The position numbers were made by a program, and so were the translations under genes. This document shows positions 3,163 to 64,000 of a DNA stretch of 64,000 bases, one piece after another. The stretch lies in contig OZ219790.1 of NCBI GenBank assembly GCA_964291215.2, forward strand, positions 352,001 through 416,000, read 5' to 3'. Under the pieces are notes generated by a model. It did not search any database. It saw only the letters and a program-made list of their open reading frames with translations, and was not told where the DNA came from. Origin of the DNA: Alphaproteobacteria bacterium (GTDB lineage: Bacteria; Pseudomonadota; Alphaproteobacteria; MPNO01; UBA830). Numbering within the stretch: the first letter of the stretch is position 1; every line of letters starts with the position of its first letter.

Positions 3163-3167
3163 GGGGT

Positions 3168-4349: not shown

Positions 4350-4367
4350 AGTGAGGAAGCCAGTGCC

Positions 4368-4885: not shown

Positions 4886-5105
4886 CTCCGGACAACGGTC
4901 AGGATCGACCGCGAGATAATGAACGTCCTTGCCGACATCGATCCCGGCGCAATCCCGCTTCACCACTTCCAAGCTTTCGGCCCGTCTGCGCCTGCGTGGC
5001 ATCCATATCCCTCCCCTGACTGCCTCGCTTCACTCAGATCGGGGAGGAGCCACGGCGAAATCTCAATCTCTTGAACGAGGTCGCGGGAAAACCCGCGCCA
5101 TCAGT
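4886..5105 (-). mobile_element. IS110-family element left end plus 39 N-terminal transposase codons
   Basis: Not in the ORF track. ATG at 5002 (GGGGAGGG upstream) gives MPRRRRRAESLEVVKRDCAGIDVGKDVHYLAVDPDRCPE; GIDVGK is the first catalytic Asp motif of DEDD transposases. Left boundary approximate. Confidence 0.8.
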
Positions 5106-5299
5106 GATAGAAGCCGATCATAGTTCGGGCCACGCTACTTTACGGGTGCTGCCGCAGCACGCCATTGCCAGGCTGACCTCGACTGCCCCGACCGTCCGAC
5201 GCATCACATCTTCCGCCCGCGCCAGCAAGTACCCGTTTTTGCTCTCGCGACGGGGCCGGCGCCGCGCGGGGGTGGGTGCTACTCTAGGAAATTTCACAA

Positions 5300-5334
5300 T
5301 ATATGTTGCGATATCCGCATATAAAGCAGATACT
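5300..5334 (+). promoter_or_regulatory. Promoter (TTGCGA-17-GATACT) with palindrome TATATG-N12-CATATA; probable leaderless autoregulated abiEi promoter
   Basis: -35 at 5306-5311, -10 at 5329-5334, ATG at 5340, no SD. Confidence 0.5.
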
Positions 5335-5339
5335 TGGTC

Positions 5340-7021: not shown

Positions 7022-7934
7022 CACGAGCGCGGTTAGCCATAGTCATCCGTTCGGGTTGGTCATGACGCGTCAATTGCATTCCGGACCTTACGAAGACCTG
7101 CTGACCTCCGCTCTGGAGGCGGAAATCAATGCTCGAACGGCGGAGGGCTGGCGGGTTGATGTCGCCTCGGCCGAATCAACTGTCCGCCCCGAACTCCTGG
7201 CCCGTCATGCTTATCACCTCCTTCGACGCGCGCTCGAAGGAATTCCCGAAGAAGACGGCGCTCAGCTGGCCAACCAGGTCACCTTGGCGAATCGACTGGT
7301 GGAGGTCCTCGTCGAACATGGCGCGATGGCCGACGACCGGGTCGCAGACGCCGCGCGCCTGCTTCTGGAAGCTGTGGAACGCGGGGCATTGGGCGGTACG
7401 CAATCGGCAATTCCGCGCCCGACACTCTCGCTTCGTCGGACCGGCCTGCTCGTCAATGGCCGGCGCGATGTCCAGATCGCGAGCGAAATCCCGAGTGCCG
7501 ATCGGATCGATCTCCTGTGTGCATTCGTGCGGCACTCGGGGTTGCGGCTGTTCCGCTCCGAGCTTGCAGAACGGGTACGAGAGGGCGCGCGGGTGCGCGT
7601 GATCGCAAGCGTCTATACCGGGTCAACCAAACGCCGAGCGCTGGACGCGCTTGTCCATCTCGGTGCGCACGTGAAGGTCTCCTACGAAGTGGCGCGGATC
7701 CGGCTTCATGCCAAGGCATGGCTGTTCCACCGCTACAGCGGTCTGCACACCGCCTACATCAGTTCGTCAAATCTCACCCACACGGCACAGGTCGACGGCC
7801 TCGAATGGAACGTGCGCGTGAGCGCGGCCGAGAACCCCGAAGTGATCGAGCGCTTCGCGGCGACCTTCGAACAGTACTGGCGAGAGCCCGAGTTCGAGGA
7901 CTATACGCCCCAGCGTGACAGTGAGCGTCTCGAC

Positions 7935-8443
7935 GGGTGCAGTTCTCGTATGGCGCATTCAAGTCATTGATTTAACATGGTTGTGCGGTCGCAAGGCAGC
8001 GGCGAAAACGGGTTTTCGTGACAATCGCCCGTTTCAGGACAGGATTTTGTCACGCCCCCCACGGCATCGACAGGGTGATCCGGGCGCTGCGCCACCTTCG
8101 CGACACCGCGGCGCCAACGGGCCGACAGGGAACTGTCCTTCTTCCGCAAGCATCGCCACCGAACGCGCTACCACGCGCTGAAGCAACCGGCTCGGGAATT
8201 GTCGAGGCGGCAAACAAGACCCTCGTCACACAGCGCATGAAACGCTCCGGCATGCGCTGGCGCATCGTCGGCGGACAATCACCTTCCGCGCCCTGATCCG
8301 GCCGCTTCGAGAGCGCGTGGACGGCCATGATCGGTGCAGACGGCGCACCAGCCAACGACAACATCAGCCCAAATCACCCCCCTGCACTGTGAGATGAACA
8401 AATGGTACTGAGCCTGCAACTGTGCCATACGAAACTCTCACCC
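7935..8443 (+). mobile_element. ISKra4-family internally deleted derivative (MITE-like, 509 bp) with both TIRs and 8-bp TSD
   Basis: TIRs GGGTGCAGTTCTCGTATGGC / GCCATACGAAACTCTCACCC; TSD GTCTCGAC at 7927-7934 and 8444-8451; residual GSGIVEAANKTLVTQRMKRSGMRW. Confidence 0.92.
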
Positions 8444-8649
8444 GTCTCGACTACGCGCTCTCGAGACGGCGCGGCGATTCCGGAATAGACGACGGCACCC
8501 TGCTGTCTCTGCTGGTCGACGTCACTCACCAAGCTGTCGCGCTGGAGGCCCTCCAAGCGGAGCGTCTGCGCGGATACCACCGCAACCTCGTGGTCGCGGC
8601 GACCGGCAAGACCTGGATTGCAGCATTCGATTTCAAACGGCTGCGCGAC

Positions 8650-45893: not shown

Positions 45894-46631
45894 CCCCCGT
45901 TCCATAGTGAAGTGCAACACATGATGGGCTGTAGCCATGTGTTTTTAGACGCATGATGTTGCGGAGCGGTAGCGGCGAGATTTCCTGTACAAGATGAAGG
46001 GAGCTTGTTCATGTCCAAAGGCTACCGTCACCTACGAAGAGCGATGCCAGATTGAGGCAGAAAAGCGGTCTTTCACAAGGTGCGATTGCTCGGCAGCTGG
46101 GCCGTGACCGAATTTTCCGGGAGATCAAGCGCAACACCGGGGGACGGGGTTACCGTCACAAGCAGGCGCAAAGGATGGCAGAAACGCAGGGCAGCCTCGT
46201 CTGTTTCCTGGCGGTTAACGCCTCAACGATGGGTTGAAGCTCAGAAAAAGCTGCGGGAGGGCCCCGAGCAGCGGCCGTTTTCGACTGGAGGGCCGCCCAG
46301 TGGGTCGGCAACGGATCTATGATCGCATTCATGAAGATCGGAGAGCCGGGGGCGTCTTGTGGAAGAAGCTTCGGCGGCGCGGCAAGAAGCCGAACTGGAA
46401 GGGCGGATGCCATTCTGGCCGGGTGGACATTTCCGAGCGCCCTGCAGTCGTTGAGGCAAAGGAACGGATCGGCGACTGGGAGCCATCATCGGCAAAGCTC
46501 ACAGTGGAGCTGTCGTGTCGCTGGTTGATCGTGCCACGAAATACACCTTGCTGGGTGGACAGAAAGACCGCAGACACGGTCGGTTCGGTCGTGATCCGCC
46601 TGCTCGGCTCTGGTGCGCTATTGGTCACCAA
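45894..46631 (+). mobile_element. IS30-family element, partial (copy 2)
   Basis: Same left TIR; retains DISERPAVVEAKERIGDWE; frameshifted and 3'-truncated. Confidence 0.9.
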
Positions 46632-47114
46632 TGTTGCGGGATATTCCTAATCGTATATAAACGCTGATATTACGGATTTTTCCAGCCCTCCTGAAAATCA
46701 AACCTCTTTCCAGATAGCGGTCCGAGACCGGACCGATCCGAAATGGGGCGTTGCCGGCTCGCGCATGCCGGTAAACGGTCCGTCGCCCGTCGCGCGCGTG
46801 AAACGCCGTCGAGTTGTTCGGCGAGCGGACGGGCAAGCGGCGGTCGGCCGTACATCCGCGGACACCGGTCCGAATGCGCCGGGCGGCAATCGTGTGGCGG
46901 CCGTGAACTTCGGGGGTGCGCGCATCCGGCGTGTCCGCGGGCTGGCGCGCATGTCCGGGGCGATGGAAATCCCCTGACTGATTCCTTTGCAAGACAGGGG
47001 GCGGCCTCCAGAGTGGCGCCGGTTGCCGGTTCGCTGCGGGCGGCGCCGGAAAGGACCGGGACCTGGAGGAGAGCGGGATGGGCGCGATCGAACCGGAATT
47101 CTATGCTCGTGTAG

Positions 47115-47550
47115 GTGACGGTCACAAAAGGCGCTTATTTGCTGGCGTTGCGCTTTTTTGTTGAGCGCGCCGAGGATTGTGATGGTGGCGCCGCGGCATT
47201 TGCGACGGGGGCCAGGGACGTAAGGAGGGCGTAGCCCGACTGGAGTCGCCGGCCCCCGTTGCGTTGAGATTTTCGCCTGCCTGAGGGAGGGGATGTGCTG
47301 GCGACCGCAGCGAGGGTCGCCGGGCTGCGCGAGGGGGTAGACTGGGGCTGCTGAGAACGATGCGGCGCCGGCCCCGTCTGCTTGGTGGCAACGACCGGCG
47401 CCCCCCCGAGCCCCCAAAAATTGCACCCGGCCCGATCATCAAACGCTCCAGACCCGCCCGGGGCAGCGGAAACCACCAGACAACTATCGTCAGCGCTTCC
47501 CCAAGCGACCAAAAAGAACCCAAAAAAATCAGCTCGCCGATCAGGGATAC
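47115..47550 (-). mobile_element. Possible non-autonomous IS66-like remnant with hairpin motif
   Basis: Minus-strand ends GTATCCC... and ...GTGACCGTCAC loosely resemble IS66 termini; contains the GGGCTACGCCC stem-loop; no TSD. Confidence 0.3.
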
Positions 47551-47552
47551 AA

Positions 47553-48618
47553 CCCCTGTTCCATAGTGAAGTGCAACACATGATGGGCTGTGGCCATGTG
47601 TTTTTAGACGCATGATGTTGCGGAGCGGTAGTGGCGAGAGTTCCTGTACAAGATGAAGGGGGCTTGTTCATGTCCAAAGGCTACCGTCACCTGCGAAGAG
47701 CGATGCCAGATTGAGGCAGAAAAGCGGTCTTTCACAAGGTGCGATTGCTCGGCAGCCGGGCCGTGACCGAATTTTCCGGGAGATCAAGCGCAACACCGGG
47801 GGACGGGGTTACCGTCACAAGCAGGCGCAAAGGATGGCAGAAACGCAGGGCAGCCTCGTCTGTTTCCTGGCGGTTGACGCCTCGGGTTGAAGCTCAGGAA
47901 AAGCTGCGGGAGGGTTCCGAGCAGCGGCCGTTTTCGACTGGAGGGCCGTGAACGGATCCATGATCGCCGAAGACCGGAGAGCCGGGGGCGTCTTGTGGAA
48001 GAAGCTTCGGCGGCGCGGCAAGAAGCCGAACTGGAAGGGCGGATGCCATTCCGGCCGGGTGGACAGAAAGACACGGTCGGTTCGGTCATGATCCGCCTGC
48101 TCGGCTCTGGTGCGCTATTGGTCCACACAATCACAACGGCAAGGAGTTCGCAGACCACAGCCGTGTCGCACTTGACGCAGATTTCTTCTTCGCCTTTCCA
48201 TTCCCGGGAGCGCGGCTTGAATGAGCATACCAACGGCCTGGTGCGGGAGTACTTCCCGAAGGGCACGGACTTTCGCGCGACATGCAACGAAGATGTTCAG
48301 AAGGTACAGGATCGGCTCAACACTCGGAAAGTCCCGGGATCGCCGACGGAGGTAATCTTGAAGTGAAACCGCCCTGACCATCTGCGTTCCGAAGCCGCAA
48401 CGTGCAGCAGGGTCCATGCCGCGCGACGGCGAAACAGTGGCTTGAAGCCGACAAAGGCGTTGCATAAGCTCGATGTTGAAGGAACTGAAGCTGTTCCCGG
48501 GCGGAATCGAGAGGGACAGAGGGGGAAAATTTGTGCAACATCTGGACCTCATCTCCGTTCGGGCTACGCCCCTCACTGCGATGAGGGCCGGATGTTGCAC
48601 TTCAGACTGGAAGTGGGG
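47553..48618 (+). mobile_element. IS30-family element with both TIRs (copy 3), internally deleted
   Basis: TIRs CCCCTGTTCCATAGTGAAGTGCAACA / TGTTGCACTTCAGACTGGAAGTGGGG; 3-bp flanks CAA on both sides; ERGLNEHTNGLVREYFPKGTDF. Confidence 0.93.
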
Positions 48619-48744
48619 CAACAAAAAATTCAGGCTCATCCCGATTACGGCAATGCGGCCGAAGGATGCCGCTGAAGGCCGGCGTAGCGCTGTGGAGAGA
48701 ACGGGACTAGGGTTGGCCATTCGCTTCGATGGATGAGGCTGGCA

Positions 48745-51700
48745 ATGTCCGACGAGGCCCCTGCCCATGTGAAATGCTGTCTCGACGATCTCGCAGCCCG
48801 GTTGTGGGCGAACAAGGCTGCCGTGATGGTCGGCGCGGGGTTCAGCCTGAATGCGAGTTCGGAATTCCCGATCTGGCAGAAGCTGGGGGACCGGTTCTAC
48901 GAAAGAATTCACGGATGTTCTCCGGGAGATGACGCCAGGTATCTGGACATTCTCAAATTGGCCGGGCAGGTCCAGGCCATGTTCGGGCGACCTGCCCTGG
49001 ACGACCTGCTCCGTCAGGCCATCCCCGACCGGCATCCGCCATCGCTGTTACATAGCCGGTTGCTGGGCTTGCCCTGGAAGGATGTGTTCACGACGAACTA
49101 CGACACGCTCCTGGAGCGGGCGTTGCCGGCCGTACCGCTCAAGCATTACACCGTCGTCACCACGGAGAAGGAAATCCCGGATGCGGAGGGGGCGAGGATC
49201 GTCAAGCTGCACGGCAGCTTCCCGGAGGGGCCGTTCATCATCACCGAGGAGGACTATCGCCGATATCCTCTCGACCACGATCCGTTTGTAAACACGGTTC
49301 GCCAGGCCCTGCTTGAGAACAAGCTATGCCTAGTCGGCTTTTCGGCGGACGACCCGAACTTCCTGCAATGGCTCGGCTGGATGCGCGACCATATCGGGAG
49401 GAAGGACGCGCTCGGGATTTATCTTGTCGCACTCGGTCGCCTTGGTGAGGCAGACAACCAGCTGCTCTGCGACCGGGGCATTGTCCCGATCGACCTGTCG
49501 TGGATCGCGCCGGGCCACGAAAAACGCGAAGAAGAAGCGTTGAACTGGCTCCTGAAGGAACTTGAGGAGCGCAAGCCGCGGGTCTCGGAATGGCCAAGGG
49601 TGTCGCCGGAAGAGCAGCCTTGGTTACGGCAGAGCGATCCCCACAGGTACGGCGAAGTCGTGGAGGAATGGCGCCGACAACGCCTCGACTACCCGGGCTG
49701 GGTGGTGGCGCCGGCAGAAGGGCGACTGCAACTTTGGCTCCACACCGAAAACTGGCTGTCGCATCTGTCCGGATTGTCGGGAGCGGAACGACAAGCGCTG
49801 GAGCCGGGCCTGGACCTGGACCTGGCGTTCGAGCTGGCGTGGCGCCTAGACCGGTGCCTTATGCCGCTCAGGGTGCCGACGGTGGGCGACCTGTCGTCGT
49901 TTCTGGAAGAGGTTGAGCACAAATACGGCAACGCTTCGGCGGAGTTTCTGGAAGAGGTTGGCAGGGAGACAACCTGTGTAGTCGCCGCCGTCTTCGAAGT
50001 CCGGCTATGGCTGATGCGGCACTATCGTGAGCAGGGCCTGCATGACGAATGGGAGGCGGTAAGGAGGAGGCTCGAGGCAAGCCTCAACCTCAACGCCATA
50101 ACGCTCGAATACAGGGCCCGGTTCCGGCTTGAGACAGCGTTGCAGGCGCTGTTCCGTTTCGACCCGGAGGAAGCCAGGCAGCTGCTGGCCGACGAGTGGC
50201 CAGACAACGATGCCACGCCCTTCCTGGACACAAACCGCACCGTCCTGCTGGCAGAGTTGCAGGGGGATAAGGACGCCCGCCCGGCTCTTGAATCGAGCCT
50301 TGCGACCATCCGTCGACAGCAGCGCCAGAACCGGGGCGCCGACGACTACACGCTCGTCTCGCAGGAGTCAGTGGTAATGCTTCATTACCAGATGCTCGAC
50401 TCCGGCCTGCTGACGGTGGAAGAGGATTCGGAGCAACCCAGCGGCATCGACCTGCGGGACCTGACGGAGCGGCAGAACGAGCTGGTCCGATACAACTGCG
50501 CGCCGCATCGCGAGGTGGAATTGTTGTCCGCGCATGTCCGGTCTGCTCCGCCGACTCCTCCTTGGAGCACGAGGGTAGAGACCCCTGATTTCGATACCGG
50601 CCTTGTATTCAGAAACTACCGCTTCGGCCCCGATGAAGAGGCGCTTTCGGCCTACAGGCTGCTGCGGATGTACGAAGACCTCGGCATGCCCTACCGCATT
50701 GGATACACAACGTTCGTTGGCAGGTGGCTCGAGGGCGCAGTGCGTCGCATGGGCATGCAGTCGCCGCACTGGGCATTGGTGGCCATCGCCCGCCTGGGCA
50801 GCGAGAGAGCCGCAGACAGCCTGTTCGACCGTGAGTATCTCGCTGGCCTGACGCAAACCGAAGTCGATAGGCATTGCGACGCTTACCTAAAGGCGCTGGA
50901 CCGCATAGTGTCCATGTTCGAAGGAACGGCTCCGTCCGGCGACGGAATTCTCGAGCCGCTCGCGCGTACGCTCCCGGAGGTGTTTTCGCGCCTCTGCTGC
51001 AAGTGCTCACCAGAATACCGAGAGTGCCTGGTGGAAATGCTCGGTCGGATCTACGGCCTGCCGCCCAGATGGAGGCTGGTGTTCAACATCCCCCGGTTTG
51101 TTCATCGTCTTCTCGAAAGCATGTCGGCAGTGGAGCTGGCGCGGGCAGCGCCGACGTTGATCGGGCTCCCGCAGCCGTTACCGATGGGGCCTGGCGGAGG
51201 GATTTCGGTTGGGGAACACGTTCACCCGGTATTGTTGGTGAATCTGCCTGAACCGGTTCGGCCAGGAGCACTCGGCATACAGCCCGGCAAGGTCGACGAA
51301 TTGCTAGATCGGATGTCGTGCAGCACCTCCAAGGCCGAGCGGGACTGGGCGGCAGCGCCGCTTGTCTGGCTGCACGAGAAAGACCAGCTGGACGAAGAAC
51401 AGTCCAAACGCCTCGGGAACTTGGTGTGGGACGGCGTGGAAGCGCCGGAAGTGCCGGTGGTGCCTGGATACCCCGACTTCATGTGTCTGAGATTGCCTCA
51501 CCCCGCCGACATCGACCCTGAGCCGCTCGTGAAGCAGCGCTTGAGGTCGAAAATTCCACATTGGGGACGCACCGTCCCGGACAACTCCATGAACGAGCTA
51601 CGCAACTCGGCGTTTTGGGTCAAATGGACCCGTCCGGAGGCGAAGGAGCTGCTTGCGGAAGCCTCGAACTGGTGGCGGAGCAACAAGCACGGGACGCATG

Positions 51701-52416
51701 ACTCCCAGCCGGATCCGTTTGTCGGTTCAGTTGCTGAACACACTCATAAGGTAATTTCTGGAGGCGTTGACGCCCTTTCAGCCGTATTTGCCCGCGTCCC
51801 CGCAGCAGTCGACAACGACAATCTGGCAGATGCGCTACGGACGTTCCTTGCGGACCTAGAGGGAGACGGCATCCCTGCATTGAGGCTCGAAGCGGCGGCC
51901 TTGAAGGTCGTGCCCGAAATGCTGGAACGGGTGATCGGGCGAGTGAAGGCCGCGTTGTCTGACACCGAGCGCGGCGTGATAGTCGATGCGCTGTCTGCGA
52001 CGGAACTTCTGGCGGCGCATACGCTGCCGGAGGACAGGCGCGAGACATTTTCCGCAGTGGAGACGACGCTTGCCGATGGTATCTGGTGGCGCCACCGTCC
52101 AGCGCTTGCCGCGAGGCTGCGCTATACGGGGAGCCTGGTCAGGAGGCTGCCCTGGTTCCTGCCCAGGGAGAGAGAATGCGGTCTGCTGGCAGGCCTCGGT
52201 CATATCTCCGAAGAAACCGATCAGAACCGCGTCAGGGGTAACGATGGGGACGAACTGATCCCGACCCGGGCCTCGGCCGCGGCCCTGGCATCGGCGTTGG
52301 CTGAGCGCTACAGCGCGTTGGGGAAGGAGGAGCCGGGATCGATCAGGCGCTGGCGGGCGATCTGTAGCGACTCCAGTGAATTCGTAGAGGTCCGCAATGC
52401 GTGGACAGCGCTCTAA
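48745..52416 (+). CDS. SIR2-domain anti-phage protein, Dsr1-like (about 1220 aa)
   Basis: N-terminal SIR2 motifs VMVGAGFS, FTTNYD, VKLHGS and LVGFSADDPNF; WRRQRLDYPGW; long helical C-terminus; uninterrupted ORF. Confidence 0.88.
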   Translation: MSDEAPAHVKCCLDDLAARLWANKAAVMVGAGFSLNASSEFPIWQKLGDRFYERIHGCSPGDDARYLDILKLAGQVQAMFGRPALDDLLRQAIPDRHPPSLLHSRLLGLPWKDVFTTNYDTLLERALPAVPLKHYTVVTTEKEIPDAEGARIVKLHGSFPEGPFIITEEDYRRYPLDHDPFVNTVRQALLENKLCLVGFSADDPNFLQWLGWMRDHIGRKDALGIYLVALGRLGEADNQLLCDRGIVPIDLSWIAPGHEKREEEALNWLLKELEERKPRVSEWPRVSPEEQPWLRQSDPHRYGEVVEEWRRQRLDYPGWVVAPAEGRLQLWLHTENWLSHLSGLSGAERQALEPGLDLDLAFELAWRLDRCLMPLRVPTVGDLSSFLEEVEHKYGNASAEFLEEVGRETTCVVAAVFEVRLWLMRHYREQGLHDEWEAVRRRLEASLNLNAITLEYRARFRLETALQALFRFDPEEARQLLADEWPDNDATPFLDTNRTVLLAELQGDKDARPALESSLATIRRQQRQNRGADDYTLVSQESVVMLHYQMLDSGLLTVEEDSEQPSGIDLRDLTERQNELVRYNCAPHREVELLSAHVRSAPPTPPWSTRVETPDFDTGLVFRNYRFGPDEEALSAYRLLRMYEDLGMPYRIGYTTFVGRWLEGAVRRMGMQSPHWALVAIARLGSERAADSLFDREYLAGLTQTEVDRHCDAYLKALDRIVSMFEGTAPSGDGILEPLARTLPEVFSRLCCKCSPEYRECLVEMLGRIYGLPPRWRLVFNIPRFVHRLLESMSAVELARAAPTLIGLPQPLPMGPGGGISVGEHVHPVLLVNLPEPVRPGALGIQPGKVDELLDRMSCSTSKAERDWAAAPLVWLHEKDQLDEEQSKRLGNLVWDGVEAPEVPVVPGYPDFMCLRLPHPADIDPEPLVKQRLRSKIPHWGRTVPDNSMNELRNSAFWVKWTRPEAKELLAEASNWWRSNKHGTHDSQPDPFVGSVAEHTHKVISGGVDALSAVFARVPAAVDNDNLADALRTFLADLEGDGIPALRLEAAALKVVPEMLERVIGRVKAALSDTERGVIVDALSATELLAAHTLPEDRRETFSAVETTLADGIWWRHRPALAARLRYTGSLVRRLPWFLPRERECGLLAGLGHISEETDQNRVRGNDGDELIPTRASAAALASALAERYSALGKEEPGSIRRWRAICSDSSEFVEVRNAWTAL

Positions 52417-52500: not shown

Positions 52501-52587
52501 GGGAGACGGCCGGTGCACCGGGAGCTTCATACCCGCGGGATCATGCGACCAGTGGAGGTCAGGGGCCATCGCAGCGCCTCCGGGCTG

Positions 52588-52761
52588 TCAGGAAGCCGCC
52601 AGGTGCCGATAGACGCCCGAGCGCCGGTCTATGTCGTCCTCGATGGCCTGCATCATCGCATCGGATGTCGCCTCGCGCCGCGCCGTCGATGCCCGGCTCG
52701 TCTCCTCTTTCGGCTCCGCTTCGGCGGGCGCCTCCGGCCGGTTCCTGTCGATGTCCGTCAT
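52588..52761 (-). CDS. Small hypothetical protein (57 aa), possible antitoxin-like peptide
   Basis: Not in the ORF track. MTDIDRNRPEAPAEAEPKEETSRASTARREATSDAMMQAIEDDIDRRSGVYRHLAAS; GAGG RBS; ATGA overlap with the upstream ORF. Confidence 0.6.
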   Translation of the reverse strand: MTDIDRNRPEAPAEAEPKEETSRASTARREATSDAMMQAIEDDIDRRSGVYRHLAAS

Positions 52762-52787
52762 TTCGTGGCCTCTCTCTCGAGCAGCTT
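52744..52787 (-). repeat. Direct repeat copy B (44 bp): KLLEREA coding end, RBS and MTDIDR start
   Basis: Minus strand AAGCTGCTCGAGAGAGAGGCCACGAAATGACGGACATCGACAGG. Confidence 0.85.
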
Positions 52788-53222
52788 TGGCGCGGCACGC
52801 CCCATCCCCTTCAGGGCGTGGAGGCTACAGCGGGGGAAAGACGAATTGGTTGAGGTAGCGCACAAGAGACGGCGCTGGTAGTGGTGAGTCCGGGCATGTC
52901 GGGCCAGATCCTCGACCGTGACCCCGCAGCCGGCAAGCAGAATCGAGCACTCATGGGGACGGATGGCCGAGAGCATCCAGTCGACGGCTGCACTGTGAGG
53001 GCAATCGGGGTCCGGCGGCCGCGCCAGGGCGGCAATTTTGCCGGCCCCGGTCGGGCGCGGCCCGGGCATTCCGGCGCAGTGCTTGCGCGCGATACGCCCG
53101 GCCAGAGCCTCTGCATCGGGCCACAGCGGGGATTTCCAATTGGCGACCTCGCGTGAGTGTGCGGCAAACGCTTCCGGACTGCACAATTCCACGGGCTCCA
53201 GATGTCCATGACGGTGCCTCAT
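52758..53222 (-). CDS. Hypothetical protein coupled to the nucleotidyltransferase (possible frameshift near 52870)
   Basis: ATGA overlap at 53219-53222; Cys/His-containing; an alternative frame gives the ending SLVRYLNQFVFPPL-stop. Confidence 0.6.
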   Translation of the reverse strand: MRHRHGHLEPVELCSPEAFAAHSREVANWKSPLWPDAEALAGRIARKHCAGMPGPRPTGAGKIAALARPPDPDCPHSAAVDWMLSAIRPHECSILLAGCGVTVEDLARHARTHHYQRRLLCATSTNSSFPRCSLHALKGMGRAAPKLLEREATK

Positions 53223-54010
53223 TGTCCCGGGCCCGTGATGCCGTCGTCATCCTCCGGGACCGCCAGCGCGGATGGCGGAACGCTGAGGGCATCGATCACG
53301 GCCTCCTTGAACGCCTCTCCGGTCCATTGGAAATGCGGCTCCACCAGGGGCTTCACCTTGTCGTTGAGGAGACGGTCCCCCGAAATCTTCTGCTGGATGA
53401 TATCCTGGACAGTCTCGATGTTCCTCGGGTCGGCCCGTCCCAAGGCCGCCCGGAGAGATGGCAAATCGAATTCTCTCGCGCACACAATGTCGAAGAGGTC
53501 ACGAGTGGCGATTTCACCGGCCTCGTACATTCGCCGCACGATCTTCCCGTAGAGAATGTCCACGTTCGAATGCAAGGCGAGCCCGGTGCCGGCCAATCGG
53601 GTCGTGTGGAGGGGATCCAGGTTGAAACTTCTGGGCAGAACGGTCACCTCAGTGCCGTCGATCTCGGCATAGGTCCCGATGGAATCGCACCAGGTCGATT
53701 CTGCCTTGCATCCCGGGATCGCCTTGATGGCAGCTTCCAGGCGTTCAAGTTCCGACCGTCCTAGGGCGTCGTAGGCACCCGGCGTGCAGAACAGGTCCAC
53801 GTCCAGGGAAACCCGGTGGCCCCACCGGGCCGCCAGAACCGTGCCTCCCCGGAACGACAGGTGTTCCGGGGAGATGAACTCCGAAAGCACGTTGAACATG
53901 CACCGCGTCACCAGACCCGGGTGGCCGGGGACTTCCTCCTCCTTCTGCCCGGACCTGTTCCGGGTATCCGGTTCGGGTGCGTCCCGCCTTGGCCTGTCGA
54001 TATCCGTCAT
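53219..54010 (-). CDS. Nucleotidyltransferase, AbiEii/AbiGii toxin superfamily
   Basis: FRGGTVLAARWGHRVSLDVDLF (GGT..RxSxDxD), ILYGKI and TRDLFD motifs. Confidence 0.88.
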   Translation of the reverse strand: MTDIDRPRRDAPEPDTRNRSGQKEEEVPGHPGLVTRCMFNVLSEFISPEHLSFRGGTVLAARWGHRVSLDVDLFCTPGAYDALGRSELERLEAAIKAIPGCKAESTWCDSIGTYAEIDGTEVTVLPRSFNLDPLHTTRLAGTGLALHSNVDILYGKIVRRMYEAGEIATRDLFDIVCAREFDLPSLRAALGRADPRNIETVQDIIQQKISGDRLLNDKVKPLVEPHFQWTGEAFKEAVIDALSVPPSALAVPEDDDGITGPGQ

Positions 54011-54037
54011 TCAGGCGGCCTCTCTCTCCAGCAGCTT
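53993..54037 (-). repeat. Direct repeat copy A (45 bp): resolvase 3' end, RBS and MTDIDR start
   Basis: Minus strand AAGCTGCTGGAGAGAGAGGCCGCCTGAATGACGGATATCGACAGG. Confidence 0.85.
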
Positions 54038-54299
54038 CTGGCCCGGCTCCTTCGGTGTGCCGTCGCCGTTGACATACATGTAGAGCGTTGTCGTCGTGAT
54101 TCCGAGCCGGCGCGCGAGGTCCTGGGCATTGGTCTCACGCAACGCCATGGCGTTCATCGCCATCCGGAGCGGCGCGGTCCATCTTTCGCGGGCGTCCGCC
54201 CAGGCGTCCTCTCGCCCGCGCCGCGGCCAGGCCGGCCCGGGTGCGCTCGGCGATGAGCTCGCGCTCGAACTCCGCGAGTGATGCGAAAATCCCGAACAC
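54011..54299 (-). pseudogene. Serine resolvase/invertase, C-terminal remnant
   Basis: VFGIFASLAEFERELIAERTRAGLAAARARGRLGGRPRKM..ARRLGITTTTLYMYVNGDG..KLLEREAA-stop; 5' part replaced by an ISKra4 fragment. Confidence 0.9.
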
Positions 54300-54534
54300 A
54301 GAGGATGAAGCGCTCCGGCATGCGATGGCGCATCGCCGGCGAGCAGGCCGTCCTCACCGTACGACCGTACGCGCCCTCATCAAATCCGGACGCTTCGACC
54401 GCGCATGGGAAATCCTCATGAGCGATGCCGATACCCCGGCCAACGACAACAACTGCACCGACTACGCCCCCAGGCGCACCGCATGAGCCCCATCAGCCGA
54501 CCGGTCCCGGCATCGCCATGTCAGACTCACGCCC
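54300..54534 (+). mobile_element. ISKra4-family 3' remnant with right TIR
   Basis: RMKRSGMRWRIAGEQAVLT..RALIKSGRFDRAW..PANDN; ends GCCATGTCAGACTCACGCCC. Confidence 0.8.
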
Positions 54535-56231
54535 CTCCGGATGCCTTCTTTATCCATCCGAAATCGGAAACGTAGCTTTCTGCCTGCGGCAGAATCTGAT
54601 TCAGAACCTGACGGTGGCGAAGTACGATTCTCTCCGCTTCCAGTGCCTTGACCGCGTCCTCGGCCTTCCCTTCCTCGAGCCGTCGAATATCCACCTCGAT
54701 CTGCGCAATAAGACCAGCGAGTCCGTCCGCAACGTTCTCGAAGACGGGAGACGGAATTTCACCATCTCCTGCCTCCAGCACTGCAAGAATTGTAGACCTG
54801 TCTGCATCCAGGGCCTCTATGACTTCGAGCACCTGTTTGGATAGCGCCGGGTTCAGCCTCGTGAAGTGAGTCCGCACGGTCGTGTTCTCCGAAAGGAAAA
54901 TCCAGCCGGAGTTCCTTCAGTTCCCGAACGGACCGGTCGAGTCGGGCACTGGCCTTCTCGGCATCGCTGTGCGCCTGACTGGCCAGGAACTCCCAGAAGC
55001 GCCTGATGAGAGCCGCAGAGGCGGCATCGAGAGGTCTGTGGCACAACAGGCAATGATCGCCGTCGTGCGGATAATCGTCTCGTTCCCGGCGTGCCAACGT
55101 GTTGGCGGCGGCGAGAAATTGTTCCCACTCCGGCGTTCCGATGCTCTCGAAGAAATCCCGCCTGAATGCTTCCGCGCCTTCCGCCGCCACAAGGCGGGCC
55201 GTTTGACGGAACGCCGCGAGTTGAATTCGATAGGTCGCGCGCCTGTCTTCGGTCAGAGGCTTGCTGCTTTCCAGCAGGCGCCCTTGGAGCCCGACGATAT
55301 CCCGTTTTGCATCCTGCAGTTGCTTGACGGCTTCCGCGACCGATCTGGAACGCAGTTCTTTTATCTGCCGCTGAACCTCTTCCAGTCTCGCCGTCTCGGT
55401 TTCTCCGAACGTAGCCAGCAGGCGAAGCTCCGCGAGATCGGTCTCTGCATCCAGCCCGGCTACGAATTTGAAAACGGAGCTCTCCGGCGCCACAAAGCTG
55501 TTTATCAAGGCGTTGTCCCGGTCCCGGTGTGCAATCTCCGCCCCAAGTCGATTGCCAAGCTCGGTGTAGACTCGAGCCATCTCGGGAAACACGTCGAACC
55601 CAGCTGGCTTGAAACCGAGAGGACTTTGCTCCACCAGATGCGTGTGCGCCACAGCCGTATCGAACACGGCAATCCGCCTGAGTTCCGAATGCTACGTGGA
55701 GCCATCGAACTCAAAGACTGTCTCCTGCTGGGTACCGTCTGCGATGACAATCTTCGCAGCAGGCTCCCCCAGTGGATCCTCTTCATACACGTTCGGAAGA
55801 ATGGGATGTTGCATACGGCTGAAGCAGACGTTGGACAGAATTCGCGTATAGCCGCTCTTGCCGACGCCATTGCCGCCATAGATAACGGTGAGGGTCGGCG
55901 AAAAGCTCAGTTCTCCGCCCGCTGGCAGTGCGTTGATGGAACAGAGGTCGCCAATTCTCCGCAACCGGATTGGCATGGGAGCGACCTCGGCCGGCCGGCC
56001 CGAGATCTCCACCGACACCTCGGTCAGGGGATCGGACGCTTCGGCAAGGCCGTGATCCTGCAGAAACACTTGGTACACCCGCTCGATTTGTTCATCGCTG
56101 AGTCGCCCGATGCGGACGGTGTTGGCAAGCACAAACCGCTGCCACGGCTTGAACCCCTTGGCCCATCCATCGAGCTGACTCCAGATCGTGGCCCGCGGGT
56201 TCTGCGCCCCGGATTCCCGTTTCTCCGCCAT
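54535..56231 (-). pseudogene. Rad50/RloC-like coiled-coil ATPase with zinc hook, frameshifted and truncated
   Basis: Walker A VIYGGNGVGKSG; coiled coil; HCLLCHRP CxxC hook; split over three ORFs (55692-56231, 54759-55667, 54527-54877); C-terminal half absent. Confidence 0.82.
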
Positions 56232-57687
56232 ATTTTCCTTCTCACAATTCCGTCTCGTGACCGCGCCGGCTCATTGTTCGAAAATTGTCCCGGGGTATCT
56301 ACTCACCCCTAGTTGGGTTCTGATTGGTCGTGGTGCTCGTTGATGATGTCTGCGGCTTTTCCGTCGAGGGCGATCTGGGTTGCGACGTGATGATTGTAGC
56401 CGAGTGCGGCCATGGAGGTGAGGTAGCTTGAGCCCCGGCACCATGCTTTTGCGTGGAGCGGAAGCATCCGGACACCTTGAGCTTGACCTTTGCCATCCTG
56501 ATCTTCTGCTCTCCGGCATTGTTGGTGAAGCTGACGTCGGGGTCGTCTATGAAGCGCAGGTTTTCGTGTTTCACGAGACGTTCGTGCAGGTTGTGTGCGT
56601 CGGACTTTGCTATGCGTCCACGTTTTCCTTTCGTCGGGATGTCGGGCAGTTCCTTGGCGCCCTGAGTGAGGATGGTGCGGTAGCGCTTGTGCACGGCCCG
56701 GCGGTCGGCCTCGTTCAGGGTTTTGGATGCGCTCTTGTTGACCTTGTGGCAGACCTCGCGGAGCAGGCTCTTCATCAGTCGCGCCCAGCGGTAGCCGTTG
56801 GATTCGACGACAAAGGTCAGTTCGCGCAGCAGGTGGCTGCCGCACAGCTGGTGGCTACACTGGCCCATGTACGAGGCCCAGCAGTCGTGGACCAGGACGC
56901 CCCTGTAGCACGGGATGATGCCGATCTCTTGCCTCTCGGCCGCGCTTGCGGTGCGGGAACTTGCACGTCAGGGTTCCGTCGGTGACCACATGGAGCCACT
57001 TGCCGTTGATCCGAAATCGTCGACATCGGGCGTTGCAGGAGGTGCGCCACGGCGGCCTCCTCCCATGACGCGAGCGCATCGTGAAAGCGCCGGACATAGC
57101 TGAGGCAGGTTACCTCGGAGAGCTTGATGCCGGAGATCGCCTGCACGAGCGCGACGGCACGGCGCAGGGACAGCATCTGGGCGACCAGCAGGTTGATGAC
57201 GAGGGCCTGGATGCCGATGCCGTACTGCACGGGATGTTGTCGGGGAACCGGCCCCGGGCCTTGCACTTCGGGCATTCCTTGATCTCGGCGCGGCGCTCGA
57301 CGACCTCGAACACGATGTCGTAGAGGACGCGGCGCTCCCGATCGACGGGGCCGTCGATGTCGGCGCCGCAGGCGTCGCAAGCATCGACCGCGACCGTCTC
57401 CTCGACGATGATCTTGCGCAGGTTGTCGCCCATCTGCTGGTTTGGCTTCGGGCCCTTGCCGTTGCTCCCGGCACGCTCTCGTCTTTGTCCGTCTGTGACG
57501 GCGGCAGACCGGAGTTCCGGCTCGTGCGTGGTCTTCTCCAGAAGGACGACGATGAGGATGTCGAGCAGGATGACGAAGACGCGGATCACGGCCTCTTTCG
57601 GCACCTTGCCGGCCGCACGCAGCGCCGCGGTCCGGGTCTTGGCCGCTTCGAACTCCTCGCGCAGCGACGCCGCGTTGACCGTCGCCA

Positions 57688-57840
57688 TCACCCGGCCTCG
57701 ACGGTCATGATCGTCGCGAGCATCGCCTGGCGCTCGCCCGGCGGCATCTTCCGGTACTCCGCTGCCCGGCCTTGCGCTTCATCAGCGCGCCGCCTCCGAT
57801 GGCACAGCCCGCTCGTCGCCTTCGATCCAAAGTAGCTCAC
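57688..57840 (-). pseudogene. Internally deleted DNA adenine methyltransferase-like passenger gene
   Basis: GTG start gives MSYFGSKATSGLC (resembles the Dam-type YxGxK N-terminus), joined directly to a short C-terminal helix; stop overlaps the transposase start. Confidence 0.5.
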
Positions 57841-57876
57841 TGCCGGTCCCCGTCGTTCTCGATAACCACCACTAAA

Positions 57877-59739
57877 CCGAAGTTCCAGCACTGATCAGAC
57901 GTATCATTATGAATGTATTGACGTTTGAAAAAATCAGGTGTGTCGCTACTGGGAACGCTACAAGCGTACGCCGAGGTAGTCCAGGGCCTTTTTCTGGAGC
58001 GGCGTGGGCCGCGTGGTGACCTGGAAGGGTTGGGCGCCCGCAAGGCGGGGCGCCACGGTGTTGCGGGTGGCGAGATTGTCGATGAGGGTGGAGAAGCTGT
58101 GCCACCCCCGGGTGTCCTCTTGGTTGCCGCCTTGGCCCGGGCGCTCGCCGAGACCTCTGCTGGCGCCACGACGGAAGGGCGCCTTCGGCATCCTCGTCGT
58201 CGAACAGCATGGGCTTCAGTCGCATGTGCCATTCGATGTAGTAGGCGAGCATGCACAGGAAGACATGGGCCCGGGGCTCGGTGCGGTGGTAGACGGGACG
58301 GACCTTCAGATCCACGGTCTTCAGGCTGCGGAAGGCCCGTTCCACCGAACTCAACCGCTTGTAGGCGCGCACCGTGCCGGGACCGTCGAGCTCGCTCTGC
58401 GGCAGGCTGGTGCGGATCACGTAGAGGCCGTCGAGCCTAGCCTCGGCAGCGATCGCAGCCTCATCGCGCCCATAGGTGAAGACACCGTCATCGTCGATGG
58501 ACCACGTGAAGTGCTTCGCCATCTTGTACTTGCCGATGACCTTCCGCTCCCCGATCTTCCCGGCACCCTTGAGACGGCGCTTGTCGCGCCGTGTCGCTGC
58601 TGCGATCGGTTCAAGCAGGGCCTCGGTGGCCTCAAGCAGTTCCTGGCGCTTGCGAGCCCGATCTTCGGCCAGCAGCGGGTTGCAGCACACCATGAGGCGT
58701 TCGCCGGGATACGCATCGCTGGTGATCTCCACCAGGTCCCTCTCGTCGAAGAGCGACATCTCGACGTCGCCGGCCTCCACAAGGGCGCGGATGGCCGGTC
58801 CCCTCAAGGCGCTGATCCAGTCCAGGCCCGCAGGCTTCACCTCCTCGCGTATGCGCGCCTCGGTCAGCATCCCCCGGTCTCCCACCAGCACCACCTTCGC
58901 CAGGGAGAAGCGCTCCTGCAGCGTGGTGATCTGTGACGCAACCGTCCCGGGGTCCGCCGTGTTGCCGGGGAACACTTCCACCGACACCGGACAGCCGTCC
59001 CGATCGCACAGAAGGCCGGCTGCAGCTTGCCCTTCTTGCCGTCCCGGGAATGACCCCGTTTGGCCAAGGGACACCCCTCCATCCACACTGAAGTCAGGTC
59101 ATAGAGCACCAGGCAGCCCTCTTCGAGGCGCCGCTTCGCCAGGGACCGCTCGATCCTCTCCTGACGCTCCAAGAGCCAGGCGCCGTAGAGGGCGTCCTCG
59201 TCCATCTCCGCATCGAGGATCTCGCCCAGGGTGGAGACCGCTGTGGCCTCGGCCAGACCCCGTGCCGTGGCCAGCTTCGAAGCGGGCTCGAGGATGCGTG
59301 CCACGATCATGGCCAGGACCTGATCGCGCGAGGGCTTCGGGTCGATCAACCTGTCCAGCTTCTTCAGGGTTCCCAGCACCCCGGCGACATGGGGAAGGGA
59401 GCGGACGATGTCGAAGGCATCGTCACCGAGGGGTTCGTTCTTCAAGAGGCGCCGCAGGGTCTCGACCTTCTCCATGGGCCAGGAGGAGAGATTGGCGATG
59501 GTGCGCTTCTTGACCTTGCCGTTCTCGCGCCATCCTTCGCGCAGGAGGACGGCGGGGGGTGAGTTGCGGTTGGGGACGATGTCTACGTACATGGCAACCT
59601 ATATAGGGATGAAAGCTCAATTTATCAAGGGAAAAATTCATAATTACATGGGAACATTTTCACGTCATCATCGCCTTATCTTGTCAACACAATCAAGCAG
59701 TTGTCGTGATTTTTCTGCTGAAATCGGCGGGAACTTCGG
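57877..59739 (-). mobile_element. IS1634-family element, full length, frameshifted transposase
   Basis: TIRs CCGAAGTTCC / GGAACTTCGG; 6-bp TSD ACTAAA (57871-57876, 59740-59745); LYDLTS, VGDRGM and VERAFRSLK DDE motifs. Confidence 0.95.
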
Positions 59740-59887
59740 ACTAAACGAATCGGCCTGCAGTGTCAAATCTCCACGAAAACCCGTTCGTTGCTCTACCCCG
59801 ACATCAAGCCAGAACCAGGGGGTGAGCAGTTACGTCCCGGGTACCGAAATCGCTGCGATTTGAGGCGGCCCCGGTTCGTCGTACAAC

Positions 59888-60333
59888 CTAGCGATTGATA
59901 TTGTTTTCGTCCGTTTGACGGGCTTTTGTCAGGGGGGCCAGCGTCACCCGGAGCGGTTTCGCGTGCGGCTGGGCGGGATGCGCGGTGAGGTTGAGTGGGT
60001 ACTGGCGCCATGCCGTGTTTTCCGCTCCTTGCGGAGCGGGCAGAGCCAGATGTTCTTCTTCGGCTTGTCGGCCCTGTTGTGTCGGTCGTAGCGGCCGCGC
60101 CCTCTGGTTGTTCCGACGCGGATCCAGCCCGCGGTCTGGTAGACGCCGCCGCCGTGGCGCGGGACCTCGACCAAGGTCTCGCAGGGCACGGCCGTGGTGC
60201 CGTAGCGCTCGGTCCAGTCTCCATGCGGCGGTCGAGAAGCCGAGCATGGCCAGCGGTTCGCCGTTTCGGTCATGGACCGCGCAGCGCATCTGCGCGCTGC
60301 GCGCCGGCCAGGCGCGTATATCCGAGGTGGGGA
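59888..60333 (-). pseudogene. DUF4338 (DruA-like) domain gene fragment, internally deleted
   Basis: AQMRCAVHDRNGEPLAMLGFSTAAWRL / DWTERYG..CETLVE..GGVYQTAGWIRVGTTRGRGRYDR..KNIWLCPL. Confidence 0.7.
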
Positions 60334-60668
60334 TCAGAAGTTTCCCCGGGCAGCCTTCTCGAGAATCTTCTTGTCCAACGCCAGATCGGAAACCGCCCGG
60401 CGCAGTCGCTCGTTCTCCTTCTCCAGATCCTTCAGGCGGCGCAGCCGATCGCCGTTCATCCCGGCATACTCTTTGCGCTACCGGTAGAAGGTGACCTCGC
60501 TGATCCCGACCCGTCGGATCGCCTCTGCCATCGACAGGTCCTGGCCGTGCAGCACCTCCACCTGCCGCAGCAGGAGGATGATCGGGTCCGGCTGGTAACA
60601 CTTTCTGGCCATGGTTGGCCCTCCTCATCCTGAACCTTAGGGTGAACCAGTTTCAGGGGGGCAGACCA
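60334..60668 (-). mobile_element. IS3-family left end plus orfA pseudogene
   Basis: TGGTCTGCCCC terminus; from 60612 MARKCYQPDPIILLLRQVE..TFYR-stop-RKEYAGM..LKDLEKENERLRRAVSDLALDK..GNF with GGGAAAC slippery site; orfB missing. Confidence 0.88.
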
Positions 60669-60695
60669 CTACCGTGCGGTGAAGCTCTTGGAGAC

Positions 60696-61973
60696 TAGTA
60701 GTCTGACATTATTGGATTGACGGATATAGTGACTTCAGTTTCGTCCGGGCATCCTTCGTCGTGAAACGCCAGTCGACAGTGACATCGGCCGCATTGCGGC
60801 GCTCGACCCACGCCACGGTCTCCCGCAGCATGGTGTCGCGGTCGGGAATGCGTCGCCGAAGGCATTGCCGCGACAGCGCGCCGCTCTCGATCTCGGCCAT
60901 GTTGAGCCAGCTTCCATGCTTCGGCGTATAGCGAAACTCGAACCGTTTTCGCACCCGCCTCTTCGGGCTCGAAGGCTTCATACAGTGACTGTGCGTGTTC
61001 AGATTGTCCAGCACGATCTTCCTGTCGGGGAAATGGTCGTCGGCAAGCTCCCGGATGAAGTGCGCCCAGTCCCGCGGCGGTCGGTGACTTTCACCGTGCG
61101 CCAGTTCTCGTTGGGCGCAAAGGCCATGAAGAGGTTGGCCGTACCGTTGCGCTCATATTCATAGTCGACCACCTCCGGCTGACCGGGAGACGGGGGATGC
61201 GGGTTTCCTTCGTCTGCTGCCGGCTGGTTTCATCCATGCACACCAGCACCTCGTCCTTGGCAAAGTCCCGCTGATAAATGTCAAGCACATCCGCCGCCAC
61301 GAACTGTGCGCTCCGGTGCGGTGGAATGCACCAGTACTGCTTCAGCCACGGCTTGATCTCCTTTTTTTTAGCGTCTTCCTGACCGTCTCTTCCGAAATGC
61401 TCTCGACGATCTCCATCTCCACCAGACGGCCGGCAAGCAGCTTCAGCGTCCAGCGGGCACAGCCCTCGGGCGGAGACGAACAGGGCGATCAGCTTCGCCT
61501 CCATCGCCCCGTCCAGCCGTTTCGGCCGACGGTTCACCTGCTCCTTGCGGCTGAGGGCGGCCTCCAGCCCCTCCAGGACGCAGCACTTGCGCAAGCGCTC
61601 AACCGTCGCCGTGCCGATGCCCAGCCCTTGCGCAATGTCGGCATCGACAAGCGCCGTCGCGCCCCTCAGCATCAGAACCTGTGCCCGGCGCCGACGCCAG
61701 GCGGCCCCGGTGCCGTCGACGATCGCCTTCAGATCCTGGCGCTCCTGCGCTGAAAGGGTCACGCGGTAGAGCTTCCTACCCCGAGAGTTGGCCATATACG
61801 TTGCTCCTGTCATTGCGCCGCTCCCGTTGTCCGGACCTGCACATGGGGCTGCGGCTGCCTGCCTGTTCTGTATCTTGCCCGTGTGGATATCGACACTGTC
61901 CGGATTCCAACAGATGCCGACACGGAAATACTACCCACCAAAAACCATCAATACAATGCCGGTGGGACTACTA
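60696..61973 (-). mobile_element. IS630-family element (second type), degenerate
   Basis: CTAGTAGTC inverted ends; orfA from 61795; A7G slippage run near 61361-61369; VCMDET, LDNLNTH and YTPKHGSWLNMAEIE motifs. Confidence 0.92.
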
Positions 61974-62263
61974 GGGGCGAGGCGGCCTTCGGCGCACCGC
62001 GGCGGCCACGGGGATGCACGGTGATCTCTCCGGCGTTTGCCACGGCGTGCCGGGACGATGCTGGCCTCGGGCACCAGCTCAACGAGCCTGTGCCCGGACG
62101 CGGGGCGTGTCGCACAGCACCTTCAACGAGAGCCTGCGGTCGGGTGTCATCAAGGCTCCGGTGATCGACGAACTCAACCAGACCAAGACGGTCTATCCGG
62201 GAACAAGCTTCCGCATCGTCTACGACATCAACGGCGCAACACTCCAAAATCGTCTCACTTAAC

Positions 62264-64000
62264 CCGAAGTTCCCGCCGATTTCAGCAGAAAAATCACGAC
62301 AACTGCTTGATTGTGTTGACAAAATAAGGCGATGATGACGTGAAAATGTTCCCATGTAATTATGAATTTTTCCCTTGATACATTGAGCTTTCATCCCTAT
62401 ATAGGTTGCCATGTACGTAGACATCGTCCCCAACCGCAACTCACCCCCCGCCGTCCTCCTGCGCGAAGGATGGCGCGAGAACGGCAAGGTCAAGAAGCGC
62501 ACCATCGCCAATCTCTCCTCCTGGCCCATGGAGAAGGTCGAGACCCTGCGGCGCCTCTTGAAGAACAAACCCCTCGGTGACGATGCCTTCGACATCGTCC
62601 GCTCCCTTCCCCATGTCGCCGCGGTGCTGGGAACCCTGAAGAAGCTGGACAGGCTGATCGATCCGAAGCCCTCGCGCGATCAGGTCCTGGCCATGATCGT
62701 GGCACGCATCCTCGAGCCGGCCTCGAAGCTGGCCACGGCTAGGGGGCTGGCCGAGGCCACAGCGGTCTCTACCCTGGGCGAGATCCTCGATGCGGAGATG
62801 GACGAGGACGCCCTCTACGGCGCCTGGCTCCTGGAGCGTCAGGAGAGGATCGAGCGGTCCCTGGCGAAGCGGCGCCTCGAAGAGGGCTGCCTGGTGCTCT
62901 ATGACCTGACTTCAGTGTGGATGGAGGGGTGTCCCTTGGCCAAACGGGGTCATTCCCGGGACGGCAAGAAGGGCAAGCTGCAGATCGAGTTCGGCCTCCT
63001 GTGCGATCGGGACGGCTGTCCAGTGTCGGTGGAAGTGTTCCCCGGCAACACGGCGGACCCCGGGACGGTTGCGTCACAGATCACCACGCTGCAGGAGCGC
63101 TTCTCCCTTGCGAAGGTGGTGCTGGTGGGAGACCGGGGGATGCTGACCGAGGCGCGGATACGCGAGGAGGTGAAGCCCGCAGGCCTGGACTGGATCAGCG
63201 CCTTGAGGGGCATCCGCGCCCTTGTGGAGGCCGGCGACATCGAGATGTCGCTCTTCGACGAGAGGGACCTGGTGGAGATCACCAGCGATGCGTATCCCGG
63301 CGAACGCCTCTGCCGCAACCCCCTGCTGGCCGAGGACCGGAAGCGCCAGGAACTGCTCGAGGCCACCGAGGCCCTGCTTGAACCGATCGCAGCAGCGACA
63401 CGGCGCGACAAGCGCCGTCTCAAGGGTGCCGGGAAGATCGGGGAGCGGAAGGTCATCGGCAAGTACAAGATGGCGAAGCACTTCACGTGGTCCATCGACG
63501 ACGACGGTGTCTTCACCTATGGGCGCGATGAGGCTGCCATCGCCGCCGAGGCCAGGCTCGACGGCCTCTACGTGATCCGCACCAGCCTGCCGCAGAGCGA
63601 GCTCGACGGTCCCGGCGCGGTGCGCGCCTACAAGCGGTTGAGTTCGGTGGAACGGGCCTTCCGCAGCCTGAAGACCGTGGATCTGAAGGTCCGTCCCCAC
63701 CGCCCCGGGCCCATGTCTTCCTGTGCATGCTCGCCTACTACATCGAATGGCACATGCGACTGAAGCCCATGCTGTTCGACGACGAGGATGCCGAAGGCGC
63801 CCTTCCGTCGTGGCGCCAGCAGAGGTCTCGGCGAGCGCCCGGGCCAAGGCGGCAACCAAGAGGACACCCGGGGGTGGCACAGCTTCTCCACCCTCATCGA
63901 CGATCTCGCCACCCGCAACACCGTGGCGCCCCGCCTTGCGGGCGCCCAACCCTTCCAGGTCACCACGCGGCCCACGCCGCTCCAGAAAAAGGCCCTGGAC
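62264..64000 (+). mobile_element. IS1634-family element, second long copy (inverted relative to 57877-59739), runs off the window
   Basis: CCGAAGTTCCCGCCG terminus; ORF 62411-63763 MYVDIVPNRNSPPAVLLREGWRE..; frameshift near 63700. Confidence 0.95.

Follow-up and report, generated by a model that had tools for sequence, protein, structure and literature searches.

A DUF1814-type nucleotidyltransferase and a helical partner gene, probably inserted once at the 3' end of a serine resolvase gene

Integron cassettes are characterised by an attC hairpin, a tyrosine integrase and an array of diverse cargo. The AbiE, MenAT, RlegTA and SanaTA toxin-antitoxin (TA) systems are coupled two-gene units whose nucleotidyltransferase (NTase) has the MenT/JHP933 fold, motifs I–IV and an R-x-S/T-x-D-x-D register containing the phosphoacceptor. 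In AbiE the antitoxin gene precedes the NTase, and a toxin-first precedent is given by RlegTA, where RlegA is encoded downstream of RlegT (excerpts of 10.64898/2026.01.19.700257). MenA1, MenA3 and AbiEi, though unrelated antitoxins, have been described as inducing auto-phosphorylation of their toxins (excerpts of PMC11375011 and 10.64898/2026.01.19.700257). In transposons of the Tn3 family, TA pairs lie beside a serine resolvase, are reshuffled by recombination between related elements and are usually found upstream of tnpR at res site I (excerpts of PMC7157771).

The locus described here lies in a window of 64,000 nt, the whole stretch of DNA that was analysed, from an alphaproteobacterial genome. 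Reading along the minus strand, a serine resolvase 3' remnant (54011–54299; PF00239) is followed by a 263-aa DUF1814/AbiEii-type NTase that begins MTDIDR (53219–54010), by a partner gene whose start overlaps the NTase stop (ancestral extent 52826–53222, 132 aa, by comparison with a copy in another genome, L001) and by a 57-aa ORF that again begins MTDIDR (52588–52761). In the ORF list the partner has 154 aa and ends KLLEREATK (52758–53222). These three minus-strand ORFs, with the MTDIDR starts and the KLLEREATK end reported in an initial annotation, were all confirmed. The pair resembles the Tn3-family TA pairs in its proximity to a serine resolvase, but it is located 3' of that gene, co-oriented and translationally coupled, and the crossover appears to fall within coding sequence. 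We favour, at somewhat better than even confidence, the explanation that the 1.25-kb unit consists of a DUF1814-type NTase, likely a toxin that modifies tRNA ends, and a helical predicted antitoxin, probably inserted once into an older locus of resolvase and antitoxin-like gene by recombination between diverged junctions.

The NTase matches PF08843 above the cut-off (E 1.2e-9) and contains all four DUF1814 motifs (hGG...DhD with Arg, the motif III Lys and +DxxD) as defined in excerpts of PMC3985639. Its conserved positions comprise G54-G56, R66, S68, D70, D72, K156, R160 and R170-D171-x-x-D174; we found 57 homologs, and G54-56, R66, D70, D72, K156, R160, R170, D171 and D174 are invariant or at least 90% conserved among 51 sequences. 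The structure model (pLDDT 91.9) has JHP933 as its top fold match (Z 11.3, rmsd 4.0, 202 aligned), with MenT1 (Z 9.6) and MenT3 (Z 9.2, rmsd 4.4, 206 aligned) also found, and a profile search of the PDB gave no sequence relative. Ser68 is in register with the phosphoacceptor position T65 of AbiEii, which aligns with the predicted phosphoacceptors of RlegT and SanaT in models in the excerpts of 10.64898/2026.01.19.700257. In its motifs, register, fold and coupled two-gene arrangement the NTase is thus like those of AbiE, MenAT, RlegTA and SanaTA. Values of dN/dS of 0.25–0.34 for the NTase and 0.23–0.25 for the partner indicate that the NTase and the partner family are both under purifying selection.

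Members of the partner family lie beside the NTase in nine of ten metagenome loci, and in L001 and L002. They are downstream of the NTase in three of the ten (L053, L054 and L056) and upstream in six (L057–L062, of which two are contig-edge fragments and some give weak single E-values); L055 has an NTase without a partner match, which counts against the pairing. Upstream and downstream partners belong to one family (98.3%, E 2e-14). The NTase-first order pointed out initially therefore holds for the window, as for L001, L002, L053, L054 and L056, but is not fixed, given the six loci with the partner upstream; this also differs from AbiE, since the partner here can stand on either side. Two distant plasmid NTases have other genes upstream, and a kinship of the partner with the rhizobial small proteins found upstream of such NTases was not supported (probability 0.07% and 3.4%). 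Several of these loci have further features. One contig, L062, carries two partner-NTase pairs 1.3 kb apart (1140–2089 and 3369–4849), the NTase of the first being truncated. The L002 pair (2241–8504) lies within a run of long pentapeptide-repeat genes and has no resolvase, and downstream in L053 stands a different resolvase. In Sphingopyxis, an 88-aa unnamed protein without a Pfam match is encoded upstream of an AbiEii-type NTase (L069:1631–1897); its relatives on 162 mostly rhizobial plasmids form a second unclassified candidate antitoxin family.

The partner model (pLDDT 94) has seven helices and no strand. The partner differs from the AbiE and MenAT antitoxins: neither HMM searches nor its secondary structure identify it as a COG5340 winged-helix protein, and it is about twice the size of MenA1. 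No AbiEi-type family was recognised by Pfam for 30 aligned members, by NCBIfam for partner members or by PADLOC for the window ORF, in agreement with the initial finding that it carries no AbiEi motif. The fold matched nothing among PDB structures or viral models, and the atlas gave no hit for the partner, which is no proof of a new fold; the best Foldseek E was 0.68 and the best VIA Z 3.4, and a missing match at this level does not exclude a family. In one search the family had 43 representatives, among which were a few spurious long proteins, and none of the 94 matches to a wider profile carries a Pfam domain. Among 400 genomes of the class a partner profile found G000, the L001 genome and one weak match (G305, not beside a checked NTase), and it matched none of 400 genomes of the phylum; one weak partner match overlies an unrelated annotated gene. 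The NTase is present in none of 60 relatives. The NTase/partner family is rare in general genome samples. We found no description of the partner family in the literature, where an unnamed family cannot be found by name and TA-survey supplements could list it. The suggestion that this might be an undescribed TA or defence pair has thus gained ground, as the pair looks TA-type and its partner matches no recognised antitoxin family: likely, it is a DUF1814 toxin-antitoxin pair with a new, unclassified antitoxin family, the roles being predicted. By analogy with MenAT and AbiE, the partner would bind and silence the NTase, possibly via induced auto-phosphorylation of Ser68; that the family silences its NTase in this way is a tentative proposal to which we give clearly less than even confidence. 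A compact antitoxin family without a solved fold, paired in both gene orders with a toxin that has a phosphoacceptor serine, would offer a direct test of how general this mechanism is.

The partner of the window is damaged. The L001 partner stops after 132 aa, and relative to it a 1-nt deletion at 52873 extends the window ORF to 52758. The KLLEREATK tail arises because this deletion runs the partner into a relic resolvase tail in the second junction copy, so that the ending noted in the initial annotation is true of the window ORF but is a frameshift product and not the native tail. The extra base at 52873 is present in sequencing runs X2, X3 and X4 and absent in X1 at the full depth of 225; it is thus probable that this strain truly has the frameshift, X1 perhaps being the source run and not independent. 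The window partner is without its most conserved C-terminal helix, and the NTase is intact. Frameshifted- or interrupted-looking partners also occur in P0063, P0067, P0068 and P0076, for which assembly errors are another possible cause. A damaged partner beside an intact NTase, with the same frameshift in the X1 contigs, speaks against a toxin-antitoxin reading. An essential antitoxin is not expected to be lost first unless the operon is silent. The operon may have been silenced by loss of its upstream region, where an insertion sequence (IS) fragment now lies. Among the X1 variants, which are not phasable, is one whose resolvase frame is unbroken.

The same lesion bears on a second explanation, with the same one-off origin and the roles reversed, in which the NTase would be a modifying antitoxin and the partner a toxin, as in HEPN/MNT, or the partner would be an abortive-infection sensor. 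A broken toxin with the antitoxin kept is the usual pattern of decay, and this strain has a broken partner and an intact NTase; the NTase-first order of the window's clade and the Dsr2-like and PDC-S06-like neighbours would also fit. However, the NTase is DUF1814/MenT-like and not a minimal NTase, the partner is upstream in most of the metagenome loci, one of the two L062 copies has its NTase truncated at 114 aa beside an intact partner, and no catalytic-looking conserved motif was recognised in the partner alignment. The HEPN RNase fold is not among the partner's listed fold matches, nor is there a Pfam match. We consider reversed roles or a sensor unlikely. Hardly less unlikely, in our view, is that the NTase is a non-toxic enzyme with the partner as its accessory subunit, both being neutral cargo in decaying mobile DNA. 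The structure entry of JHP933, the best fold match, bears no more specific title than 'putative nucleotidyltransferase', some DUF1814 genes stand without antitoxins (excerpts of PMC3985639) and the window module has several lesions; against this stand the tight coupling in both gene orders, the patchy mobile distribution and the purifying selection on both genes.

We next turn to the repeat that brackets the unit, returning to the preferred reading of a single insertion. Copy 1 (53974–54047, minus strand) comprises the resolvase 3' end and the beginning of the small-ORF gene, which today serves as the start of the NTase; copy 2 (52725–52796, minus strand) comprises a relic resolvase 3' end, whose KLLEREATK-stop overlaps the ATG, and the start of the small ORF. 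The two form a direct repeat with 79.7% identity across 74 nt (E 2.4e-8 when searched against the 6.15-Mb genome) that the genome contains nowhere else, and no site other than these two has the 18-nt start motif at up to two mismatches. Within the core the copies differ by two substitutions, both at synonymous third positions. The initial annotation had described a direct repeat of 44–45 bp that gives two unrelated genes the same start. The repeat is real, but it is not limited to that length, since the N-terminal ~25 residues, ending at a Glu-Glu pair, are common to the NTase and to the small-ORF relatives P0061/P0062; nor are the genes unrelated at their 5' ends. The repeat is a coding junction between the resolvase 3' end and a small gene, from whose first ~25 codons the NTase appears to have taken its start, and it is most likely the scar of a single nested insertion.

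The NTase tree is consistent with such a history. It was built from 36 fetched NTase proteins and 11 locus rows, with the broken L062 copy left out. In these 47 rows the four MTDIDR-type NTases and P0002 form a single clade (100/100) nested among relatives that begin just before the EEVPG motif, the position of P0002 within it being weakly supported (84/19). Other close NTases have their own short start just before the Glu-Glu (EEVPG) motif. The MTDIDR start is limited to this one nested clade and is absent from L002 and from all ten metagenome NTase loci. Within the shared N-terminal stretch lies a 26-nt half-palindrome (53946–53971, minus strand), which we take to be a REP-like element and which is read as DTRNRSG in the NTase N-terminus. 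It has three further exact copies in G000 and relatives in G062, many of them as paired inverted copies; the element is also found inside P0061/P0062. The same 26-nt half stands in frame inside genes at G000 C1:450911, 827569 and 827839, which we presume to be of toprim/primase type, and one REP-bearing gene copy in G000 has an extra insert that is absent from its paralogue.

Alleles were surveyed in six runs, X1–X6 (X1 and X2 from study P1; X3, a sponge metagenome according to its record, from study P2; X5 from study P4), in which contig pieces are short. Pieces of the filled allele are present in all six. Alleles in which the resolvase is directly followed by the small ORF, which the initial annotation had named as support for its proposed insertion at the resolvase 3' end, were found in other runs with both junction types, which bears out the proposal. 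In X3, a 548-nt contig (depth 23.7, side 129) joins the resolvase end (54003–54131) straight to the whole small ORF (52588–52753); its small-ORF part has 23 differences, and this empty allele is therefore a relative and not a fresh excision. The copy-2 type of junction is attached to the resolvase in X2, where a 424-nt contig joins 54017 to 52765 with zero letters between and diverges afterwards, and in X1, which has the same joint and rejoins the small-ORF end near 52618; X5 gave a 16-nt loose end of copy-2 type, and X4 and X6 no empty-allele joint.

Coexisting empty and filled alleles, as seen in X1, X2, X3 and X5, would also be expected if the repeat were a reusable recombination site, where cassettes are captured by the serine resolvase or some other enzyme and each is provided with a ribosome site and a start. 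The X3 empty allele is moreover a mosaic of the kind that excision predicts (copy-1 resolvase end, copy-2 small ORF), and two X3 contigs run past the junction into 138 letters without identification. In its repeat boundaries, its empty and filled alleles and an expression borrowed from upstream, the unit is also like an integron cassette. However, it has no attC-like hairpin (folding z of +0.21 to +0.86 on both strands of both repeat copies), no array of diverse cargo identified in the six runs and, beside it, a PF00239 serine resolvase and not a tyrosine integrase. The repeat copies are 20% different, as against ~98% likeness among filled alleles, and only one NTase clade has the start. Neither the junction pattern nor the small ORF was matched in viral contigs, no junction copy was found among 60 relatives, and a small-ORF profile gave one strong match (the L001 genome) and one weak match in 400 genomes of the class. 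The known res sites described in excerpts of PMC7157771 are located either upstream of tnpR or in between divergent genes. Besides the NTase fusion and the small-ORF variants, no cargo was identified behind the junction in the six runs, in which one contig type is unplaced. An excised circle was considered for a lone X3 joint that goes back 1249 (side 37, depth 5.6) and covers only ~53940–53973, and this was rejected because the joint fits a small-ORF allele with the REP-like insert.

We favour one fusion of paralogous coding junctions over a reusable site because the start is clade-limited, the repeat has no fold and MTDIDR is missing at the other loci compared; a capture site is in our judgement very improbable. 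The gene-capture array envisaged in the initial annotation thus found no backing: there is no hairpin, one clade only, no MTDIDR in L002 or the ten metagenome loci, no third cargo identified in six runs and no circle junction in X1–X6. The locus is not evidence of a new gene-capture machine. Equally remote is the bolder idea that the junction supplies a ribosome site and N-terminus to incoming TA or defence genes, building nested addiction arrays with a DUF1814 toxin and a new-fold antitoxin as first cargo. What the locus offers is a snapshot of one TA-like pair nesting in another and acquiring its start, in which the empty and the filled allele can both be seen.

The 57-aa ORF that probably received the insertion matches no family in Pfam or NCBIfam. 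A profile built from it matches a gene coupled upstream of Doc at one of two Doc loci in G062 (E 4.8e-8 among 108 ORFs) and nothing at the second. In hhalign its C-terminal 28 residues are 57% identical over 28 columns to the Doc-coupled antitoxin of L071 (95.4%, E 2e-8), which itself matches MazE_antitoxin and TIGR02609 doc_partner (E 2.3e-8), both below the cut-off. It differs from doc_partner in missing the AbrB/MazE domain, and in the window other DNA interrupts the following gene after its first four codons (52558–52569, minus strand). The small ORF is thus an antitoxin-like helix lacking the DNA-binding domain, with the MTDIDR segment as its N-terminus. All atlas leads scored below 0.9, one of them being PF26044 Antitox_halo, found on 19% of one cluster, and the small ORF was absent from the plasmids searched. 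The next gene is cut at four codons in L001 too and continues in X4 and X5 contigs; in X3 a different gene stands behind the small ORF, and X3 and X5 reach no more than 30 letters into the next gene. G000 contains one other copy of the 35-nt segment that interrupts this gene (52523–52557), at C1:2328454 with 5 mismatches, and the segment is also present in an X2 contig; it may represent an end or a site of some other element. A stretch at 52801–52826, considered as a presumed IS200/IS605-like end, was rejected, having no second copy at up to 5 mismatches and no unusual folding.

The resolvase of the initial annotation is indeed upstream, but only as a remnant. It is cut at 54299 by an IS-end fragment (54296–54540, many copies in G000), which has taken the place of the gene's 5' half and of the sequence upstream of it; the remnant also has a 2-nt deletion at 54171. 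Full copies of the fragment, which we take to be IS256/ISKra4-like, adjoin a transposase C-terminus. In L001 the resolvase is intact (206 aa). Behind the nearest plasmid resolvases (82–83% identical) lie genes for an IS481-family transposase and an AAA ATPase. Resolvases of greater distance, found in X3, X4 and X5, continue into another coupled gene, whose first codons resemble that transposase. The coupling of these distant resolvases to a transposase-like gene suggests the order resolvase and transposase, then resolvase and small ORF, with the NTase pair last. About 75 nt of an upstream block common to two plasmid resolvases is missing from L001; judging from three sequences, which is a weak basis, this block may be the res region of the plasmid resolvases.

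Taken with the order of genes, we envisage the following course, whose succession of recombination steps we pieced together from short contigs. A resolvase, whose parent element we assume to have been Tn552-like, would have lost its coupled transposase and gained the coupled small ORF, with its Doc-antitoxin-like helix, and another gene. In a lineage with the REP-like insert in the small ORF, an NTase coding region would then have been joined to the first ~25 codons of that ORF, probably at the common Glu-Glu codons, a fusion through which translation of the NTase would have come to begin at the resolvase-coupled ribosome site and start. The direct repeat would have arisen because the tail of a second resolvase-small-ORF copy remained behind the partner. 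AbiE-type autoregulation acts at promoter inverted repeats, and the fused allele no longer has the promoter native to the pair. The filled allele is found in a genome of the same class and another family, where the L001 module has 97.6% identity across 1,964 nt while its flanks differ, a pattern indicative of recent transfer; a promoter and terminator scan of L001 gave nothing within the module. In the window genome the module appears to be decaying, with a truncated resolvase, a frameshifted partner and a cut gene behind the small ORF.

Convergent with the locus is a Sir2 defence gene (48733–52416, plus strand). Its 1227-aa product, called Dsr1-like in the initial annotation, is instead named Dsr2 by NCBIfam and PADLOC, with full-length matches (PADLOC E 2e-276) and an NCBIfam score of 947 bits that is below the 1400 cut-off. 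The last 74 nt of this Dsr2-like gene are kept beside the module in L001; the two were therefore linked before they parted. On the other side of the module, an ATPase gene of frameshifted appearance is spread over three ORFs (54530–56231, minus strand), two of which match PADLOC PDC-S06. Dense frameshifted IS remnants, several with small mutual deletions, surround the defence genes (46000–48500 and 56300–64000). Upstream of the resolvase in L001 are a short, presumably CRISPR-like repeat series and a transposase with an in-frame tandem repeat (2836–3103 and 4431–4732).
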